Virus record (IMG/VR): IMGVR_UViG_2529293063_000012
Location: 1 to 6,504 of that record
Length of the DNA stretch: 6,504 nucleotides
Reading direction: 5' to 3' (one strand)
Source: a virus
Lineage: Duplodnaviria; Heunggongvirae; Uroviricota; Caudoviricetes
The stretch's first letter is position 1, and each line of letters starts with the position of its first letter. Made by a program: the position numbers and the translations under genes. Shown piece by piece: positions 1 to 6,504 of this stretch. The notes under the pieces are model-generated. The model searched no databases. It saw only the letters and a program-made list of their open reading frames with translations, and was not told the DNA's origin.

Positions 1-1
1 C

Positions 2-1090
2 GGTGATGATAGTCCTGAAGCTCGGCGTATCACCCGCCGATGGGGTATAACTGAAGTAGCAGATTTAATTGGTGTAACTCCTCAAGCAATTAGAGATGCT
101 GAAAAGAGCGGGCGTTTACCTGCACCTGACTTTGAAATGAGAGGAAGAATTGAACGTCGTGCTGGTTATACCATAGATCAAATCAACAGTATGCGAGCAG
201 TTTTTGGCAACCCAAACCAACGACCACAAGATAAAAACCCTGTTGTGCTTGCCGTTATGTCACACAAAGGCGGCGTTTATAAAACATCGTCTGCGGTGCA
301 TCAAGCTCAATGGTTAGCATTACAAGGTCATCGTGTTCTTTTGGTTGAAGGTAACGATCCTCAAGGCACGGCCTCTATGTATCACGGTTATGTTCCTGAT
401 TTACATATCCATGCCGAGGATACTTTACTGCCATTTTACTTAGGAGAACGCGATAACGCTGAATATGCTATAAAGCCAACATGTTGGCCTGGGCTAGACA
501 TTATCCCTAGCTGCCTAGCTTTACATCGTATAGAAACAGATCTCATGCAATATCATGCTCAGGGTAAATTGCCTCATCCTCCACACCTTATGCTACGCGC
601 AGCTATTGAATCAGTTTGGGATAACTACGATGTTATCGTTATAGATAGTGCTCCGAACCTCGGTACAGGAACCATTAACGTTGTTTGTGCCGCTGACGTT
701 ATTGTTGTTGCTACACCTGCAGAATTATTTGATTACGCTTCTGTTCTGCAGTTTTTCACAATGCTTCTCGATCTATTGGAAAGCGTTGACCTAGGTGGAT
801 TTGAGCCAACCGTTCGCTTACTTCTGACTAAATATAGTCTCACTACAGGGAATCAATCACGATGGATGGAAGAACAAATAAGAAATACATGGGGATCAAT
901 GGTATTACGTCAGGTTGTACGCGTTACCGATGAAGTAGGTAAAGGCCAGATAAAAATGAGAACAGTATTTGAACAAGCAGCAAACCAACGTTCAACATTG
1001 AATGCATGGAGAAATGCTGTTTCTATATGGGACCCTGTTTGCCGAGAAATTTTTGATGATCTAATAAAACCTCGCTGGGAGAACGAATAA
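2..1090 (+). CDS. sopA: Partition ATPase SopA/ParA (type Ia Walker-type), 5'-partial: reading frame is open from position 2 with no stop, so the true start lies upstream of the window
   Basis: Translation from position 2 gives GDDSPEARRITRRWGITEVADLIGVTPQAIRDAEKSGRLPAPDFEMRGRIERRAGYTIDQ..., which continues into the ORF-track protein. It contains the deviant Walker A box (SHKGGVYKTS) and long stretches that match F-plasmid SopA as I recall it (e.g. VLLVEGNDPQGTASMYHG, KPTCWPGLDIIPSCLALHRIE, DVIVIDSAPNLG). The Met at 137 in the ORF track is internal. Confidence 0.9.
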   Translation, partial: GDDSPEARRITRRWGITEVADLIGVTPQAIRDAEKSGRLPAPDFEMRGRIERRAGYTIDQINSMRAVFGNPNQRPQDKNPVVLAVMSHKGGVYKTSSAVHQAQWLALQGHRVLLVEGNDPQGTASMYHGYVPDLHIHAEDTLLPFYLGERDNAEYAIKPTCWPGLDIIPSCLALHRIETDLMQYHAQGKLPHPPHLMLRAAIESVWDNYDVIVIDSAPNLGTGTINVVCAADVIVVATPAELFDYASVLQFFTMLLDLLESVDLGGFEPTVRLLLTKYSLTTGNQSRWMEEQIRNTWGSMVLRQVVRVTDEVGKGQIKMRTVFEQAANQRSTLNAWRNAVSIWDPVCREIFDDLIKPRWENE

Positions 1091-2055
1091 TGAAACAGCG
1101 CTCTCTTCTGAAAAATGCTCCAGATATTAATCGCATTATGAGTAATAATCATCATGCCCCTGAACATCAGCCCGTATCACCTATGGTTGGTGATTTAAAA
1201 CGTCAACTGAGCTCATTAACCGGTAACAGCATAACTTTGCCAGTATGCGGACGTAATGTTAACTTTAAGTTAGAGACAATTCCCGCAGATAAAGTTGAAA
1301 TGGCAACAATGGTATGGCTAGGTAATGAACGCGATCAAGATTTATTAAATGAATCCTCTCTAGCCGATTTAATCCCATCTTTTCTAACGTCTGGACAACA
1401 AAATCCAGCTTTCGCCAGAAAAGTATCTGGAATCGTTGAAGTCGCTGACGGCTCACGTAGAAGAAAAGCAGCGATATTAACAGGATGTGACTATCGCGTC
1501 TTAATTGGTGATCTCGACGATGAACAGATGCATTGGTTATCCCAAATTGGTAACGATTATAGGCCTATTAGTGCATACGAAAGAGGAAAGAGATACTTAC
1601 GCAAGCTAAATGACTTTGATGGTAACGTTAAAGCATTAGCCGAGGCTGAAAATATAGATAGAAATATTATCACTCGCTGTATCAATACAGCTGGTCTACC
1701 AAAAGATATATTAGCTATCTTCAATCATCCAGGAGAACTGTCAGCTCGTGCTGGAGATTCTTTGTTTAAGGTTTACAAAAAAAACATGGCTGCCATGAGC
1801 AATGCTGCTCATCATCTTCTGGCAATTAAAAAAAACGGCGAGGATTTAGAATCTTCACGGATTATACAAATATTATCTGACTCTGTTCTGGTTGGCGACG
1901 AGGAAAAAACAAAAGACGAGAAAAAATATGGGGAAGGGATCACTGCTAGATATAAAGGTAATTTTGTAACTATAAAAATTGATAGCCGCAAAATATCTAA
2001 AGAAATACTAAGCAGAATTGAGTTGTTACTAGAGGAACAATCTACTGATACTTAA
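1090..2055 (+). CDS. sopB: Partition centromere-binding protein SopB/ParB
   Basis: 321-aa ORF whose ATG overlaps the sopA stop by 1 nt (TAATG at 1088..1092), with GGAG about 9 nt upstream. Motifs match F SopB as I recall it (ITLPVCGR, WLGNERDQDLL, DLIPSFLTSGQQNPAF, VSGIVEVADGSRRRKAA, LSQIGNDYRPISAYERG, IITRCINTAGLPK, FNHPGELSARAGD). Confidence 0.9.
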   Translation: MKQRSLLKNAPDINRIMSNNHHAPEHQPVSPMVGDLKRQLSSLTGNSITLPVCGRNVNFKLETIPADKVEMATMVWLGNERDQDLLNESSLADLIPSFLTSGQQNPAFARKVSGIVEVADGSRRRKAAILTGCDYRVLIGDLDDEQMHWLSQIGNDYRPISAYERGKRYLRKLNDFDGNVKALAEAENIDRNIITRCINTAGLPKDILAIFNHPGELSARAGDSLFKVYKKNMAAMSNAAHHLLAIKKNGEDLESSRIIQILSDSVLVGDEEKTKDEKKYGEGITARYKGNFVTIKIDSRKISKEILSRIELLLEEQSTDT

Positions 2056-2059
2056 GAAG

Positions 2060-2082
2060 TATCCCCTGCATTGCAGGGGATA
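2060..2082. terminator. Perfect palindrome (11-bp arms, 1-nt centre) between convergent sopB and invertase genes; probable bidirectional intrinsic terminator, alternatively a protein-binding site
   Basis: TATCCCCTGCA-T-TGCAGGGGATA read directly at 2060..2082. It lies 5 nt after the sopB stop and about 22 nt from the invertase stop, with a T-rich stretch (TATTGATTTA) following on the + strand. Confidence 0.4.
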
Positions 2083-2104
2083 TTGATTTATGGTTGTACT
2101 CCAG

Positions 2105-2659
2105 TCAATGATTCCCAGCCGGAAACCTGCGGTAAAGCGTGGATAAAGCAACATCGAAGATAATCGCTATCTGTTTACGTGAAACACCATTCACAATAAG
2201 CCTTCCGACCTGTTCCCATTGCTCGGGTGCCAGTTTTGAGCGGCGCCCCCCTATCCTACCGTTAGCCCTTGCCACCGCTAATCCTGCACGCGTTCTTTCA
2301 ATAATATTTTCCCGCTCCATCTCTGCGACCGCACTCAGCATTGTGTAGGCAAAGCGGCCAATTGATGTGCTAATTTTTATTCCTTCTGTAACAGAAATAA
2401 ATTCAATGTTGTTTGATAAAAAATAGTTAAGCAATTCAACAAGATGAATCAGAGAACGCCCCATTCTGTCCAGCTTCCAGACAATAACCGTATCACCCGG
2501 TCGTAACGCTTTTATCAGCTTATCCAGTCCTGGTCGTTTTGACTTCGCGCCAGATATTTTATCTTCAAAAATCCGGTCACATCCTGAACTCCTGAGCGCT
2601 TCCAGTTGTAACTCCAAATTCTGGTCAAAAGTTGACACTCTCGCATAGCCGTATTGCAT
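2105..2659 (-). CDS. Serine-recombinase DNA invertase of the Gin/Cin/Hin/Pin family
   Basis: 184 aa with N-terminal catalytic motif YARVSTFDQ (Ser9), resolvase-domain motifs VWKLDRMGRS and AEMERENIIERT, and a C-terminal HTH (RKQIAIIFDVALSTLYRRFP) closely resembling Gin/Hin. Size and position next to a crossover site fit the family. Confidence 0.9.
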   Translation of the reverse strand: MQYGYARVSTFDQNLELQLEALRSSGCDRIFEDKISGAKSKRPGLDKLIKALRPGDTVIVWKLDRMGRSLIHLVELLNYFLSNNIEFISVTEGIKISTSIGRFAYTMLSAVAEMERENIIERTRAGLAVARANGRIGGRRSKLAPEQWEQVGRLIVNGVSRKQIAIIFDVALSTLYRRFPAGNH

Positions 2660-2694
2660 ACTTTCTAACCTGCAATTGTTGCTGAAAGCGGGAA

Positions 2695-2723
2695 AAAATA
2701 TCGTTCAGACGACACGGAGGCAA
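2695..2723 (-). promoter_or_regulatory. Candidate sigma70 promoter for the invertase gene (-35 TTGCCT, 17-nt spacer, -10 TATTTT on the minus strand), abutting cixL
   Basis: Read on the reverse complement of 2660..2730: TTGCCT-(17 nt)-TATTTT, about 35 nt upstream of the invertase ATG, with AGG..GAAAG before the ATG. The match to consensus is weak (4/6 and 4/6). Confidence 0.25.
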
Positions 2724-2749
2724 TTCTCAAAAACCTCGGTTTGCAGGAA
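2724..2749. repeat. cix/gix-like 26-bp inversion crossover site, left (cixL)
   Basis: TTCTCAAAAACCTCGGTTTGCAGGAA. Its reverse complement matches the site at 5974..5999 at 22 of 26 positions and resembles the Mu gix sequence as I recall it (TTCCTGTAAACCGAGGTTTTGGATAA). It lies between the invertase gene and the Sv cassette. Confidence 0.75.
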
Positions 2750-3898
2750 ACGGTAAATAAGGCTTCTGGCGCATTACAGAAAAACCAGAACGGCGCAGAT
2801 ATTCCCGATAAAAAACTATTCCTGCGTAATATCGGCACAACAAATTCAACAACCATGTCTTTTAGTGGTGGTGCTGGATGGTTCAAACTGGCAACTGTAA
2901 CAATGCCACAAGCCAGTTCCGTGGTTTACATAAGCCTGATTGGTGGCGCAGGGTATAACGTTGGCTCCTCGCATCAAGCAGGCATCTCTGAGCTGGTTCT
3001 GCGTGCCGGAAATGGGAATCCAAAAGGTATTACTGGTGCATTATGGCGACGGACCTCGGTTGGATTTACTCATTTTGCATGGGTGAATACATCCGGTGAT
3101 ACCTATGACATTTATGTAGAAATAGGTAATTACGCCACAGGTGTTAATATTCAGTGGGATTATACCAGTAACGCCAGCGTAACGATTCATACATCACCAA
3201 CTTATACAGCGAATAAACCAACAGGCCTGACAGATGGAACTGTATATGTAATTTACAGTTCGCACATTAAACCGACTGCTGCTGAGGTTGGGGCGTTGTC
3301 ATTATCTGGCGGTCAATTGAATGGTGCACTGGGCATCGGAACATCCAGTGTTCTTGGCGGTAACTCGATTGTTTTGGGGGATAATGATACTGGTTTCAAA
3401 CAGAACGGCGATGGCCTTCTTGATGTTTATGCTAATAGTCAGCATGTATTCCGTTTCCAGAATGGCGTGGCTATTGCTTTAAAAAACATTCAGGCCGGAG
3501 ATGGTAAAAAACTCTCGCTATCAAGCTCCAACAACTCCACAAAGAATGCAAGGTTTAATTTATGGGGTAATTCATCCCGCCCCGTAGTTGCAGAACTTGG
3601 TGATGATTCAGGTTGGCATTTTTATAGTCAAAGAAATACAGATAATTCAGTATTGTTCTCCGTTAACGGTCAGATAAACCCCAACAACTGGAGTAACTTT
3701 GATTCTCGTTATGTGAGAGATGTCCGACTTGGTACACGTGTTGTTCAGACTATGCAAAAAGGCGTGATGTATGAGAAATCAGGTCATGCAATTACGGGGC
3801 TTGGCATTATTGGCGCTGTTGATGGCGATGATCCGGCTGTATTCAGACCAATACAAAAATACATCAATGGCACATGGTATAACGTCGCACAGGTATAA
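2741..3898 (+). CDS. Tail-fibre variable C-terminal cassette Sv; silent in this orientation (no ATG; the TTG at 2741 in the ORF track is probably not a real start)
   Basis: The frame is open back to a TAA at 2666..2668 with no ATG between 2669 and 2740. The N-terminus encodes GLQETVNKA, the same junction peptide as in the expressed fibre (GLQETVNRA). The protein is Gly/Ser/Thr/Asn-rich and its C-terminus (NFDSRYVRDVRLG..., PIQKYINGTWYNV) parallels the Sv' C-terminus. Confidence 0.8.
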   Translation: MQETVNKASGALQKNQNGADIPDKKLFLRNIGTTNSTTMSFSGGAGWFKLATVTMPQASSVVYISLIGGAGYNVGSSHQAGISELVLRAGNGNPKGITGALWRRTSVGFTHFAWVNTSGDTYDIYVEIGNYATGVNIQWDYTSNASVTIHTSPTYTANKPTGLTDGTVYVIYSSHIKPTAAEVGALSLSGGQLNGALGIGTSSVLGGNSIVLGDNDTGFKQNGDGLLDVYANSQHVFRFQNGVAIALKNIQAGDGKKLSLSSSNNSTKNARFNLWGNSSRPVVAELGDDSGWHFYSQRNTDNSVLFSVNGQINPNNWSNFDSRYVRDVRLGTRVVQTMQKGVMYEKSGHAITGLGIIGAVDGDDPAVFRPIQKYINGTWYNVAQV

Positions 3899-3901
3899 TT
3901 T

Positions 3902-4045
3902 ATGCAGCATTTAAAAAATATTACTGCAGGTAATCCCAAAACTATCGAACAGTATCAACTTACAAAAGAATTTGATGTTATCTGGTTATGGTCCGAAGAC
4001 GGAAAAAACTGGTATGAGGAAGTGAAAAACTTTCAGCCAGACACA
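3902..4045 (+). repeat. Internal inverted repeat, arm 1 (5' end of U), ~88% nt identity to the reverse complement of 4848..4991
   Basis: Manual alignment of 3902..4045 against the reverse complement of 4848..4991 gives a 22-nt and a 48-nt perfect block (AATCCCAAAACTATCGAACAGTATCAACTTACAAAAGAATTTGATGTT) plus scattered mismatches. Identity starts exactly at the ATG. Confidence 0.8.
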
Positions 4046-4429
4046 ATAAAGATTGTTTACGATGCAAATAATATTATTGTCGCCATCACCAAAGATGCCT
4101 CCACGCTTAACCCTGAAGGTTATAGCGTCGTTGAGGTTCCAGATATTACAGCCAACCGCCGCGCTGATGATTCCGGTAAGTGGATGTTTAGGGACGGAGC
4201 TGTGGTTAAACGGATTTATACGGCAGACGAGCAACAACAACAGGCCGAATCACAAAAGGCCGCGTTGCTTTCTGAAGCTGAAAGCGTTATTCAGCCACTG
4301 GAACGCGCTGTCAGGCTGAATATGGCGACGGATGAGGAGCGTACACGACTGGAGTCATGGGAACGCTACAGCGTTCTGGTCAACCGTGTGGATACAGCAA
4401 AGCCCGAATGGCCACAAAAGCCTGAATAA
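3902..4429 (+). CDS. Tail-fibre assembly chaperone (U/Tfa family) cognate to Sv
   Basis: 175 aa starting 4 nt after the Sv stop (TAATTTATG). The N-terminal ~45 aa are nearly identical to the minus-strand paralogue ([26 protein letters not shown].WLWSE.GKNWYEE). Position directly downstream of a fibre tip is typical for Mu U and P2 G. Confidence 0.85.
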
Positions 4430-4434
4430 AAATT

Positions 4435-4454
4435 AAGGCCCGCTATCGGGCCTT
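4435..4454. terminator. Bidirectional rho-independent terminator hairpin between convergent U and U'
   Basis: AAGGCCCG-CTAT-CGGGCCTT, a GC-rich 8-bp stem with a 4-nt loop, sits in the 28-bp gap between the U stop (4427..4429) and the U' stop (4458..4460). Confidence 0.6.
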
Positions 4455-4457
4455 GTC

Positions 4458-4991
4458 TCATTCAGGTTGTTCGGGAAATATTACTGGCAGGCTGGAGGTG
4501 TCTGTAGATTCGACTTTCTGCGCATAGAGCATCCACTCGGTTAATTTTTGTTTATTCTCGTCGGAAATGATGCCCAGCCGTAGCTGTGAGTCCCATAGCT
4601 GTGTTTTATCCCTGACGAGCTGTAGCAGGCTTTGCTTTTCATTTTCCGCTTGTTGCCTCTGCTCTTCCTCGGTATAAGTTCGCTTTATCACTACGCCATC
4701 TTTGAACATCCAGTTGCCGGAAATATCAGCGCGTCGGTTTGCCGTAATATTGGGTAACTCAACCACACTCATTCCCTCTGGATTAATCAGGGATACATCT
4801 TTCTCAATACAGCAAATAACACCCTCCTGGTTATATGCCACTTTTAACGTGTCAGGCTGGAAATTTTTCTGTTCCTCATACCAGTTCTTACCTTCTTCCG
4901 ACCATAACCAGACAACATCAAATTCTTTTGTAAGTTGATACTGTTCGATAGTTTTGGGATTTCCTGCTTTAATATTTTTTAAATGCTGCAT
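4458..4991 (-). CDS. Tail-fibre assembly chaperone (U'/Tfa family) cognate to Sv'; start placed at the ATG at 4991 (the ORF track extends to a GTG at 5000)
   Basis: The protein from MQHLKNIKAGNPK... parallels U. The ATG at 4991..4989 follows the Sv' stop (4995..4993) in a TAATATG arrangement, with AGGA about 10 nt upstream. The C-terminal half diverges from U. Confidence 0.85.
   Translation of the reverse strand: MQHLKNIKAGNPKTIEQYQLTKEFDVVWLWSEEGKNWYEEQKNFQPDTLKVAYNQEGVICCIEKDVSLINPEGMSVVELPNITANRRADISGNWMFKDGVVIKRTYTEEEQRQQAENEKQSLLQLVRDKTQLWDSQLRLGIISDENKQKLTEWMLYAQKVESTDTSSLPVIFPEQPE
4848..4991 (-). repeat. Internal inverted repeat, arm 2 (5' end of U')
   Basis: Reverse complement aligns to 3902..4045 at ~88% identity (see arm 1). 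Confidence 0.8.
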
Positions 4992-4992
4992 A

Positions 4993-6504
4993 TTAAGCAC
5001 GTCCTACATTGTACCAATGACCATTAATATATTTCTGAACAGGAGCGTAGACAGGCCATTCTCTCGAATCATCAAAGTTGCCACCTGTCAGAACGTATCC
5101 GGCTGGAACCGTTCCGCCATCACCACCCCAGACAATCCCACTCTGGTTAGCACCCATGCGAACGTCACGAACATAGCGTGAGTCAAAATTACCATAATTG
5201 CCGGGAATAATTTGCGAGCCGCAAAGCCAATTCCCGTTATTATCCATGTACGCCTGACCATCGGTGCCATTGTCTGTCCTTGAGTTATTAATCATGTAGA
5301 TGCCAAATTCCCTATTCCCCAGTCCACCAATCATAAATTTGCGGTCAGCATGGTCCTGACGTAGCAATGCCTGGGCGCTATCAGTTTTAACTATATTTCT
5401 CCCAAAGATAGCGTTGTTATCGCGCATCTGAATCCACATACCATTACTGCTGTTAATAGCAAAACGGTTTGCAAATATATCCCCTGTAACATCAAGACCA
5501 TGCCCCATGCTTATCCGACCAGTTCTAAGATTAAGCGTAAAGGGGCGTAGTGGCCCTATATCACCATTTTCTCCCTCATTCTCTCGTGTAGGGATGATAT
5601 GCAGGCATTCTTCAGAACGACGAAAAATAGCACCAAAAGATGAATTAAATATCCTCAGTGCATTGACTGTCGATATTTTTACTTCACTGCTGAAAAGGGC
5701 TTTAACAAGGACAGACAAAGCATCCCATTTAAGATTCATCAGGTCTTTTGTTGTGGTGCTCTGGCGGCTTCTCCATTTGAAATATTCATTGCCGTTGTCG
5801 CCTGTTTCAAACCACATGTATGAATCAGTGTCACCATCAGCATCATTTTTAAATCCAATCTTCGCCCAGTCAGTATTTCGAATCCAGGCAAGGATAGAGT
5901 CGTTTTCAAAAGTAAGCCCACCGGACAAGGTATCGCCATTCTTTTGCACGGCGTTCCTGGCCCTGTTTACCGTTTCCTGTAAACCGAGGTATTCGATAAC
6001 GGCAGCAACGGTCGATTTCGCAAGAATATCCCGCCCGACTTTTGTCAGGGTTGCCAGGCTGGCGACATCATTCCCCGTAAAATACGGAAACCTGTCTGCC
6101 GCAGTAGCAAGCCCGGCCAGCGCCGTCAGGGTGGCATCTTTCGGTTGCTTACCCGCAAGCGCGTTAGTCATGGTGGTCGCAAAATTCGGGTCGTTGCCCA
6201 GCGCCGCCGCTAACTCGTTCAGCGTATTCAGTGCGTCAGGCGACGAGTCTACAAGGGCGGCAATCGCGGCCATCACATAAGCCGTACTTGCGATCTGAGT
6301 ATTATTAGTACCTTTTGGCGCAGTTGGCGTTGTTGGCGTTCCGGTCAGTGCAGGACTATTTAAGGGCGCTTTCTTGTTCGTTTCATCCATTACCGCCTTA
6401 ACCGCTTTTGGTGTCGCAGCCAGCGTTTCAGACGGGCTGTTAGTGGCGCTACTGAGCTGAACTATCCCTTTTCGTGCCGTCGTTGCGTCCTGAGCGGTAT
6501 ATTT
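4993..6504 (-). CDS. Tail fibre protein: constant N-terminal part (Sc, entering from the right window edge, 5'-partial) fused in frame to the variable tip Sv' (about 5973..4993); this is the expressed fibre in this orientation
   Basis: The minus-strand frame is open from 6504 through the ATG at 6390 with no stop (upstream peptide KYTAQDATTARKGIVQLSSATNSPSETLAATPKAVKAV-MDETNKK...). This region and PDALNTLNELAAALGNDP are typical of the conserved tail-fibre domain in Mu S / P2 H-like fibres. The crossover site lies inside the coding sequence at the GLQETVN junction. The C-terminus (NFDSRYVRDVRMG..., PVQKYINGHWYNV) parallels Sv. Confidence 0.85.
   Translation of the reverse strand, partial: KYTAQDATTARKGIVQLSSATNSPSETLAATPKAVKAVMDETNKKAPLNSPALTGTPTTPTAPKGTNNTQIASTAYVMAAIAALVDSSPDALNTLNELAAALGNDPNFATTMTNALAGKQPKDATLTALAGLATAADRFPYFTGNDVASLATLTKVGRDILAKSTVAAVIEYLGLQETVNRARNAVQKNGDTLSGGLTFENDSILAWIRNTDWAKIGFKNDADGDTDSYMWFETGDNGNEYFKWRSRQSTTTKDLMNLKWDALSVLVKALFSSEVKISTVNALRIFNSSFGAIFRRSEECLHIIPTRENEGENGDIGPLRPFTLNLRTGRISMGHGLDVTGDIFANRFAINSSNGMWIQMRDNNAIFGRNIVKTDSAQALLRQDHADRKFMIGGLGNREFGIYMINNSRTDNGTDGQAYMDNNGNWLCGSQIIPGNYGNFDSRYVRDVRMGANQSGIVWGGDGGTVPAGYVLTGGNFDDSREWPVYAPVQKYINGHWYNVGRA
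5974..5999. repeat. cix/gix-like 26-bp inversion crossover site, right (cixR), embedded in the tail-fibre coding sequence
   Basis: TTCCTGTAAACCGAGGTATTCGATAA matches the reverse complement of 2724..2749 at 22 of 26 positions, with homology extending about 8 nt further into the segment (TTTACCGT). It is very close to the Mu gix sequence as I recall it. Confidence 0.75.

Follow-up and report, generated by a model that had tools for sequence, protein, structure and literature searches.

The tail fibre assembly genes U and U' of the viral DNA analysed here form a long inverted repeat with their 5' ends, and this repeat is nested inside an invertible segment. This raises the question of whether the repeat is a working device, by which an inner segment of about 0.8 kb could be inverted, or the remnant of past exchange between the two genes. 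In the present analysis, the repeat is best explained as an evolutionary footprint that contains a short patch converted from U' to U, and not as a device or a second switch. We assign this explanation a probability of about 85%.

Overall organization

The window, i.e. the whole stretch of DNA that was analysed, has a length of 6,504 nt and is the entire contig APZB01000145.1 of the Escherichia coli draft assembly GCA_000358735.1. The proteins matching the window genes carry the source names E. coli P0302308.4 and 179550. The genes for ParA (137-1090) and ParB (1090-2055) are followed by the gene for a serine DNA invertase of the Cin/Gin/Hin type on the minus strand (2105-2659; PF00239, 2.9e-45; PF02796, 1e-13). 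Two cix-like crossover sites of 26 bp, the left one at 2724-2749 (plus strand) and the right one at 5974-5999 (minus strand), bound the invertible segment. This outer pair is also detected as the 40-nt inverted repeat I2, the second-longest repeat of the window. Sv, the silent alternative C-terminal part of the fibre with the tip ...YNVAQV (2741-3898, plus strand), is located upstream of U (3902-4429, plus strand), which encodes a tail fibre assembly protein of 175 aa. U' (4458-4991, minus strand) encodes a tail fibre assembly protein of 177 aa; its 5' end is U-like, and the allele goes together with the ...NVGRA tip. Both proteins match PF02413 (Caudo_TAP), U with 128.2 bits (2.8e-37) and U' with 123.4 bits, where the curated cut-off is 22.1. 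U is also matched end to end, over all 175 residues, by chain B of PDB entry 5YVQ, the Tfa protein (gpU) of phage Mu (E 1.9e-104). Between the convergent U and U' genes, a G+C-rich hairpin (4435-4454, minus strand) is terminator-like for the U' transcript, and in D108 terminators are annotated at the homologous place. The S gene (4993-6504, minus strand) consists of the constant part fused at cix to Sv' (tip ...YNVGRA), and runs off the window end. The constant part of S and Sv' are the expressed set in the orientation of the window.

According to the ORF map and the homology with P1 and D108, the constant fibre part lies outside the segment and the two variable parts lie inside, each followed by its own tfa gene. 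The G segment of Mu and D108 and the C segment of P1 have the same gene order (Sc, Sv, U, U', Sv'), with a serine invertase beside the segment and two inverted 26-bp sites. They likewise combine a constant fibre part with one of two tips, and their convergent tfa genes are split by a hairpin. The window is 87-91% identical to P1 and D108 over 3695-4886. It differs from Mu and P1 in the ...NVGRA tip of Sv', in the U-like 5' end of U' together with the patch in U, and in ParA and ParB beside the invertase. In the cin gene of P1, a Fis-dependent recombinational enhancer is annotated within the gene. Both orientations of the whole segment were found in the assemblies. In the locus L099 the segment is flipped relative to Sc, and contig L100 terminates in a junction between the Sv' side and the flank with the invertase, which corresponds to the opposite orientation of the whole segment. 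It is this inversion of the entire segment, at the outer pair of cix sites, that acts as the functional switch.

The inverted repeat

The inverted repeat I1 has two arms of 150 nt, which are 90% complementary and 792 nt apart. Arm A (3901-4050, plus strand) covers the 5' end of U (gene nt 1-149), and arm B (4843-4992, minus strand) covers the 5' end of U'. In the repeat search, I1 was by far the longest repeat of the window. An in-frame comparison of U and U' gives 134 identities over the initial 150 nt, with perfect runs at gene nt 1-22, 31-78, 80-92 and 106-120. The second of these is the 48-nt perfect block (3932-3979 in U and 4914-4961 in U'). The sequence-only reading had described an inverted repeat of about 140 bp and about 88% identity with a 48-nt perfect block, and the recomputation by software agrees with this description. 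Its estimate that the conserved C-terminal motifs of Sv and Sv' are only about 70% identical in nucleotides is also borne out (24/36 for the motif NFDSRYVRDVR, and 35/57 for the last 18 codons and the stop).

The identical sequence with identical arms is present in four independent draft assemblies. Thus, the repeat is not an assembly artefact. When the region 3890-5003 was folded as single-stranded DNA, the arms simply paired, as expected, and the fold is uninformative on function. Perfect inverted blocks of such a size break short-read assemblies, and one contig of the lineage ends inside the 48-nt block.

Comparison with related U/U' pairs

The sources of the survey were P1, D108, six plasmid and phage relatives, four E. 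coli prophages and plasmids, and 160 viral-contig loci, which yielded 86 distinct convergent U/U' pairs. The relatives were picked by their similarity to U and U', and the sample consists mostly of E. coli prophages. Over the first 99 nt, U and U' share 65-79 identities in 78 of the 86 pairs, and at least 80 in only 8. The pair of the window has 93/99 identities, the fourth highest value of the 86. Over the first 150 nt, the U/U' 5' ends of Mu/D108 and P1 are only 70-75% identical, with 105/150 identities in P1 and 113/150 in D108, in contrast to 134/150 in the window. The synonymous sites of the region are saturated in P1, D108, C311 and E. coli W; in codons 1-33, pS is 0.76-1.09 for P1 and D108, compared with 0.14 for the window.

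The likeness could in principle be kept purely by codon- or RNA-level selection on the first 50 codons of both genes. Codons 34-50 are indeed strongly constrained, with a pN of 0.07 and a pS of 0.875. Within the 5' region of tfa, conservation is highest in AAAAACTGGTATGAGGAA, which encodes K-N-W-Y-E-E at gene nt 103-120 (4004-4021 on the plus strand in U, and 4872-4889 on the minus strand in U'), and it is the longest run of positions conserved at 95% or more among 150 distinct tfa genes. From the codon comparison, the likeness at nt 100-150 is amino-acid conservation (GKNWYEE.KNFQPDT) with saturated synonymous sites. Against selection alone, the synonymous sites of the relatives are saturated and most of their pairs share far fewer identities, as described above; the perfect block is also missing from sister elements with the same U' allele. 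The high U/U' identity is limited to a few pairs and synonymous sites are saturated elsewhere, which indicates that it is lineage-specific and not imposed by the protein. Selection as the sole cause is therefore highly improbable.

The excess of identity is confined to one interval. In the window, pS is 0.09 for gene nt 25-78, 0.51 for nt 79-120 and 0.94 for nt 121-150, and the latter two values are as in related elements. In codons 9-26, the pair of the window is identical at 53/54 positions (pS 0.09), whereas the sister loci L183-L185, which carry the same U' module, show 43/54 identities and a pS of 0.48-0.59. Outside codons 9-26, the pair of the window equals these carriers in every interval. 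Judging from the synonymous sites, the recently homogenised share of the '140 bp' is about a third. The sequence-only reading had considered that identity maintained by codon-level constraint, with no excess synonymous identity, would speak against conversion. No excess over related elements is found at nt 79-150, and for nt 25-78 such constraint is contradicted by the comparisons.

The conversion patch in U

The nearest orthologue of U is found in L007 and L009. Over 528 sites, 16 differences separate it from U of the window, and all but one of them, i.e. 15, are clustered within nt 23-69 (Fisher p 2.6e-16). U has the state of the window's own U' at 12 of these 15 clustered sites, and the state of U' of L183 at 11 of them. 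The patch in U extends over gene nt 25-78 (3926-3979, plus strand; minimum tract nt 25-69) and holds the 48-nt block. The corresponding donor stretch in U' (gene nt 25-78; 4914-4967, minus strand) contains the tract ACTATCGAACAGTATCAACTTACAAAAGAA, which is native to this U' allele.

In order to decide which gene was changed, the contexts of the U' allele are important. The cluster of the window U' at 90% contains 17 proteins, and all those read start with MQHL[K/R]NIKAGNPKTI[E/K]QYQLTKEF. The contexts of the allele were taken from contigs that encode P0017, a 98% identical representative of the window U'. The allele is always located behind the same fibre tip (...VQKYINGQWYNVGRA) and always has the tract ACTATCGAACAGTATCAACTTACAAAAGAA. 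This tract is present in every U' of the allele family, on five different backbones, and in no other U. The cassette of the ...NVGRA tip and U' was found in P2-like, P1-like, Mu-like, lambdoid and IncFII-plasmid backbones. The U genes paired with it in the other carriers begin like any ordinary U, and their identities with U' amount to 83-84/99 and 123-125/150. All U' genes of the allele have the tract and the U partners elsewhere are ordinary; thus, the tract belongs natively to U', and U of the window is the changed gene. From the comparison of carriers, the U-like 5' end of this U' allele is shown to be an older, shared trait that predates the patch of the window. This U-like 5' end had made the opposite direction, with U as the donor and U' as the recipient, a candidate; this direction was rejected, as the P0017 allele has the tract in all of its contexts.

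The allele itself changes from the U-like 5' part to the U'-type body between gene nt 85 and 122, and the megablast match of D108 ends at position 4886 of the window. In the phage and plasmid collections, no sequence exceeds 54% amino-acid identity to the ...NVGRA tip of Sv'. A search of the viral contigs with the exact 41-nt pattern of the U' tract gave no match. When the native cassette was compared with the complete E. coli genomes, no record exceeded 87% identity over 80% of the length, and thus the cassette combination is absent from the complete E. coli genomes. A scan of genome contigs for U' gave only two loci, one of them in a Vagococcus assembly, and neither is informative.

The donor may have been the resident U' or a copy on another element. 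A C at gene nt 36 is common only to U and U' of the window, and all other U' copies of the allele have A. This private C indicates the resident U' as the donor, and it argues against the import of the patch from another phage or prophage, for example by a phage Rad52-like recombinase at co-infection. The nearest possible donor is also only 0.9 kb away on the same molecule. Import would be helped by the range of backbones that carry the ...NVGRA and U' module, so that donors are common in E. coli, and by the ability of phage recombinases to exchange short diverged stretches (PMC3945230). Furthermore, the bases at gene nt 23, 24 and 30, at the left patch edge, differ from both the U' donor and the U orthologues. 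Considering the private C, we regard import, which would require an external donor with C36 outside the sample of relatives, as unlikely. The three non-parental edge sites indicate that the patch is not a single clean copy, or that later changes occurred.

According to these comparisons of alleles and orthologues, about 45-54 nt of U are shown to have been overwritten with U' sequence, non-reciprocally and in this lineage only. The proposal of a gene conversion between the chaperone 5' ends thus holds as to the process, as seen from the clustered U' states in U, and has to be reduced in extent from about 140 nt to about 45-54 nt. As in other gene conversions between inverted paralogues, the differences are clustered with the states of the paralogue, the flanks are orthologous, and tracts of varied length recur in the family. 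The present case stands out by its short tract of about 50 nt, which is unusual, and by the fact that donor and recipient can both be named. No paper on the homogenisation of U and U' was found in the literature search. As far as the literature shows, this short-patch conversion from U' to U is a specific and previously undescribed instance, and the process itself is known.

The patch lies in the N-terminal part of U. In residues 9-23, it changed U to the U' states A9, I15 and E23, and residue 8 became T. The AlphaFold model of U is confident only in the C-terminal helices, and the pLDDT of the N-terminal domain is about 40-60. The patch stretch may tentatively be placed over the first helix of this predicted model (residues 15-24 of U).

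From these results, three layers of likeness can be distinguished. U and U' are paralogous tail fibre assembly genes arranged tail to tail in a host-range segment of the Cin/Gin type. In the first layer, nt 100-150 are alike via the conserved residues, with saturated synonymous sites. In the second layer, U' of the mobile ...NVGRA module is already U-type over its 5' 85-120 nt, which gives about 83% identity to any partner U. In the third layer, a copy of about 45-54 nt (nt 25-78) from the resident U' to U produced the 48-nt block and raised the identity from about 124/150 up to 134/150. The copying may have been carried out by heteroduplex repair, when the inverted copies, 0.9 kb apart, were paired by RecA or a phage recombinase. 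Template switching at a replication fork would be an alternative, and sequence alone cannot separate it from heteroduplex repair.

The inner segment

As an alternative to gene conversion, the sequence-only reading had proposed that the repeat is a substrate for RecA-dependent inversion of the inner segment (4046..4847), which could yield mismatched pairs of fibre and chaperone or new chimeras. If the repeat were working in this way, the inversion of 4051-4842 would form a second layer of switching that pairs the tips anew with the chaperone bodies. The 48-nt block exceeds the minimal length for efficient pairing, which is 31-34 bp for RecA and 23-27 bp for Red-beta (PMC3945230). Outside the block, however, the arms show 10% divergence, a degree that strongly depresses host recombination (PMC3945230). 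The orientation of the inner segment was compared among the contigs. It is the same in 4/4 contigs of the lineage and in 8/8 related contigs (L183-L192, both genes complete, same U' module), where these are consensus assemblies in which rare isomers are missed. The eight chimeric proteins predicted from a crossover in the arms were searched for in 15 billion proteins; none of the eight was found, and the native U and U' were present.

A synthetic query, in which 4051-4842 was flipped within 3500-5400, matched some records of complete E. coli genomes over 81-93% of its length. These matches were candidates for inner isomers, and four of them (L003-L006) were inspected. They are 84-88% identical and have other tip combinations, and were rejected as isomers. 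L003 and L004 were also examined closely as inversion products, and the replacement of one tip explains them better. The ...NVAQV tip persists in nature with both kinds of body, which would fit an inner inversion: the adjoining body is of the U type in P1, D108 and the window, and of the U' type in L003, L004 and L006. With one orientation in all contigs compared, none of the eight chimeras in the protein collection and no invertase site in the arms, the proposed inversion is very unlikely as a working switch. Nothing indicates that it occurs at a detectable rate or is used; a rare inversion in a cell population is possible.

Plasmid p15B has a multiple-inversion system, Min, with several crossover sites inside the fibre genes. 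The repeat of the window is nested in an invertase-controlled fibre region in the same way, and its arms might be regarded as extra crossover sites of the serine invertase. The search for cix-like sites was performed with a degenerate 26-bp pattern derived from the window's own two sites (0.03 chance matches expected), which a divergent site could escape. The pattern matched only 2724-2749 and 5974-5999. With up to 3 mismatches, it matched neither the arms (3901-4050 and 4843-4992) nor any other place in 2750-5973, in contrast to the Min system with its additional sites. We give extra crossover sites next to no chance.

Homogenised and chimeric genes in the family

Homogenised U/U' tracts of various lengths recur among the relatives. 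In the Yersinia phage vB_YpM_44 (L094), a perfect tract of 172 nt reaches 56 nt into the fibre genes. The U/U' 5' ends of L016 and L161 are identical at 141/150 positions, and in the P2-like prophage L006 about 500 nt are perfect, including both fibre tips. From the varied tracts in these alignments, homogenised U/U' 5' ends are shown to arise repeatedly and independently in the family.

In L003, L004, L006, L016, L078 and others, there are chimeric genes in which a U-type 5' part is joined to a U'-type body. The expectation of chimeric U/U' genes in related elements was thus confirmed. The chimeras always adjoin ...NV[AS]QV tips, and look like fibre-tip replacements and not inner inversions. 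Their junctions are located at nt 85-122 (the allele of the window), near nt 172-181 and near nt 290-299 (L006). The idea that all junctions lie at the invariant KNWYEE block holds only in part, as the interval of nt 85-122 includes this block and the other two do not.

In 152 distinct tip-plus-tfa units, the tfa type assigned from the first 99 nt tracks the type of the adjacent tip more closely than that of the body, with an adjusted mutual information of 0.76 versus 0.41. In passages of two papers that cite North et al. 2019 (PMC9608196 and PMC7291167), Mu Tfa is described as binding the fibre with its N-terminal domain and as trimerising through its conserved C-terminal helical domain. The 'C-terminal specificity domains' of the sequence-only reading are the opposite of the model given in these passages. 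The association of the tip with the tfa 5' end fits a fibre-binding N-terminal domain of Tfa. Co-adaptation may be suggested on this basis, and plain physical linkage gives the same pattern.

The nested repeat might also provide a slow, second, homology-driven freedom, in which rare crossovers or patches at the U/U' 5' ends re-pair tips and bodies and move fibre-contacting N-terminal residues. The occurrence of ...NVAQV in both pairings, the mutual information values and the 8/86 homogenised pairs are compatible with such a freedom, and none of them demonstrates it. We consider it quite improbable. If it is true, one element would explore at least four combinations of tip and chaperone instead of two.

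Biological implications

The mosaic evolution of phage tail-fibre genes was reportedly described by Haggard-Ljungquist et al. in 1992 and by Sandmeier et al. in 1992 and 1994. Homology-driven mosaicism is known in phages (PMC3945230). The patch of the window is ordinary, as both the process and the kind of system in which it occurred are known. It provides a clean and datable case of short-patch conversion between inverted paralogues in a well-known host-range switch, and alone it matters little. Among about 150 tfa genes, the initial 100-300 nt go with the adjacent tip rather than with the remaining part of the chaperone gene, which suggests natural junctions for cassette swaps. The cassette of the ...NVGRA tip and U' is carried by at least five backbones of unrelated phages and plasmids. 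Both observations may help to engineer or classify receptor-binding modules.

Results and discussion

The orientation of the segment between the outer cix-like sites (2724–2749, + strand; 5974–5999, − strand) was compared with that in other assemblies of the same lineage, using the window stretches 2607–2763 and 5966–6504. In one of them (L099, 4318–7667), another assembly of the same element, the whole segment lies in the opposite orientation. At the end of a second (L100, 6503–6659), the Sv′ side adjoins the invertase flank. As L099 is flipped and L100 carries this junction, they give direct evidence that inversion at the outer cix sites is active. The L099 segment lies beside genes for a P2-like baseplate and tail, at the end of a contig of 442 kb.

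Another contig of the lineage (L102), of 1,861 nt, corresponds to window 3083–4943, and its end falls within the U′-arm copy of the 48-nt perfect block (4914–4961). In the same strains, several U′ proteins are likewise incomplete, being cut off where a contig ends. Short-read assemblies probably break at the inverted block.

The ParA–ParB–invertase flank (window 1–2732) is 98% identical to that of the 45.9-kb plasmid pZ1323HEC0355-3, the tail genes of which are lambdoid (gpJ, Lom and the Stf N-terminal domain). In other relatives, repA occupies this position, together with P2-like tail genes. Thus, the invertible cassette and its flank occur on differing backbones. The Sv′ tip (4993–5170) is the cassette partner of U′ (4458–4991). 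As a cassette, the tip ending ...NVGRA and this U′ allele are found in P2-like, P1-like, Mu-like, lambdoid (gpJ/Lom/Stf) and IncFII-repA plasmid-phage backbones (related loci L183–L192). In the phage and plasmid collections, the ...NVGRA tip shows at most 54% amino-acid identity to any entry, and no near match to its DNA was found in complete E. coli genomes. An enterobacterial-type U′ with 76% identity, the fibre tip of which ends in ...NVASV, is present in an assembly labelled Vagococcus sp. WN89Y (NZ_JBQPOM010000071.1). Vagococcus is a Gram-positive genus, and this match may reflect contamination or mislabelling.

The closest orthologue of the window U differs from it by 16 nt and lies 3′ of a single fibre gene of 1,320 aa (L009). 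No second tfa (chaperone) gene is present in this locus (35–4528), and the arrangement is non-invertible. At the left edge of the conversion patch (window 3924–3931), codons 8–10 of the window U are ACT GCA GGT; they are AAA GCA GGA in the U′ donor and AAG TCT GGA in the U orthologues. Nucleotides 23, 24 and 30 of the gene match neither candidate source. Codon 8, ACT, is the state of the canonical Mu-type U′.

A 172-nt perfect homogenised tract in Yersinia phage vB_YpM_44 (L094, 3277–4366) is an independent case; it takes in the final 56 nt of each fibre gene and the initial 116 nt of each tfa gene. In the P2-like prophage of E. coli Z0117EC0013 (L006, 3063–6981), the two alternative fibre tips do not differ in their last 70 amino acids, and a perfect inverted repeat of about 500 nt covers positions −210 to about +290, counted from the tfa start. 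Therefore, a flip of this segment would alter the chaperone body, not the tip.

In P1, Mu/D108 and the window, the partner of the ...NVAQV fibre tip is a U-type chaperone. In two other loci (L003, 3063–4992; L004, 609–2859), the chaperone that follows this tip has a U′-type body. Thus, the pairing of the tip with the chaperone body is not fixed in nature.
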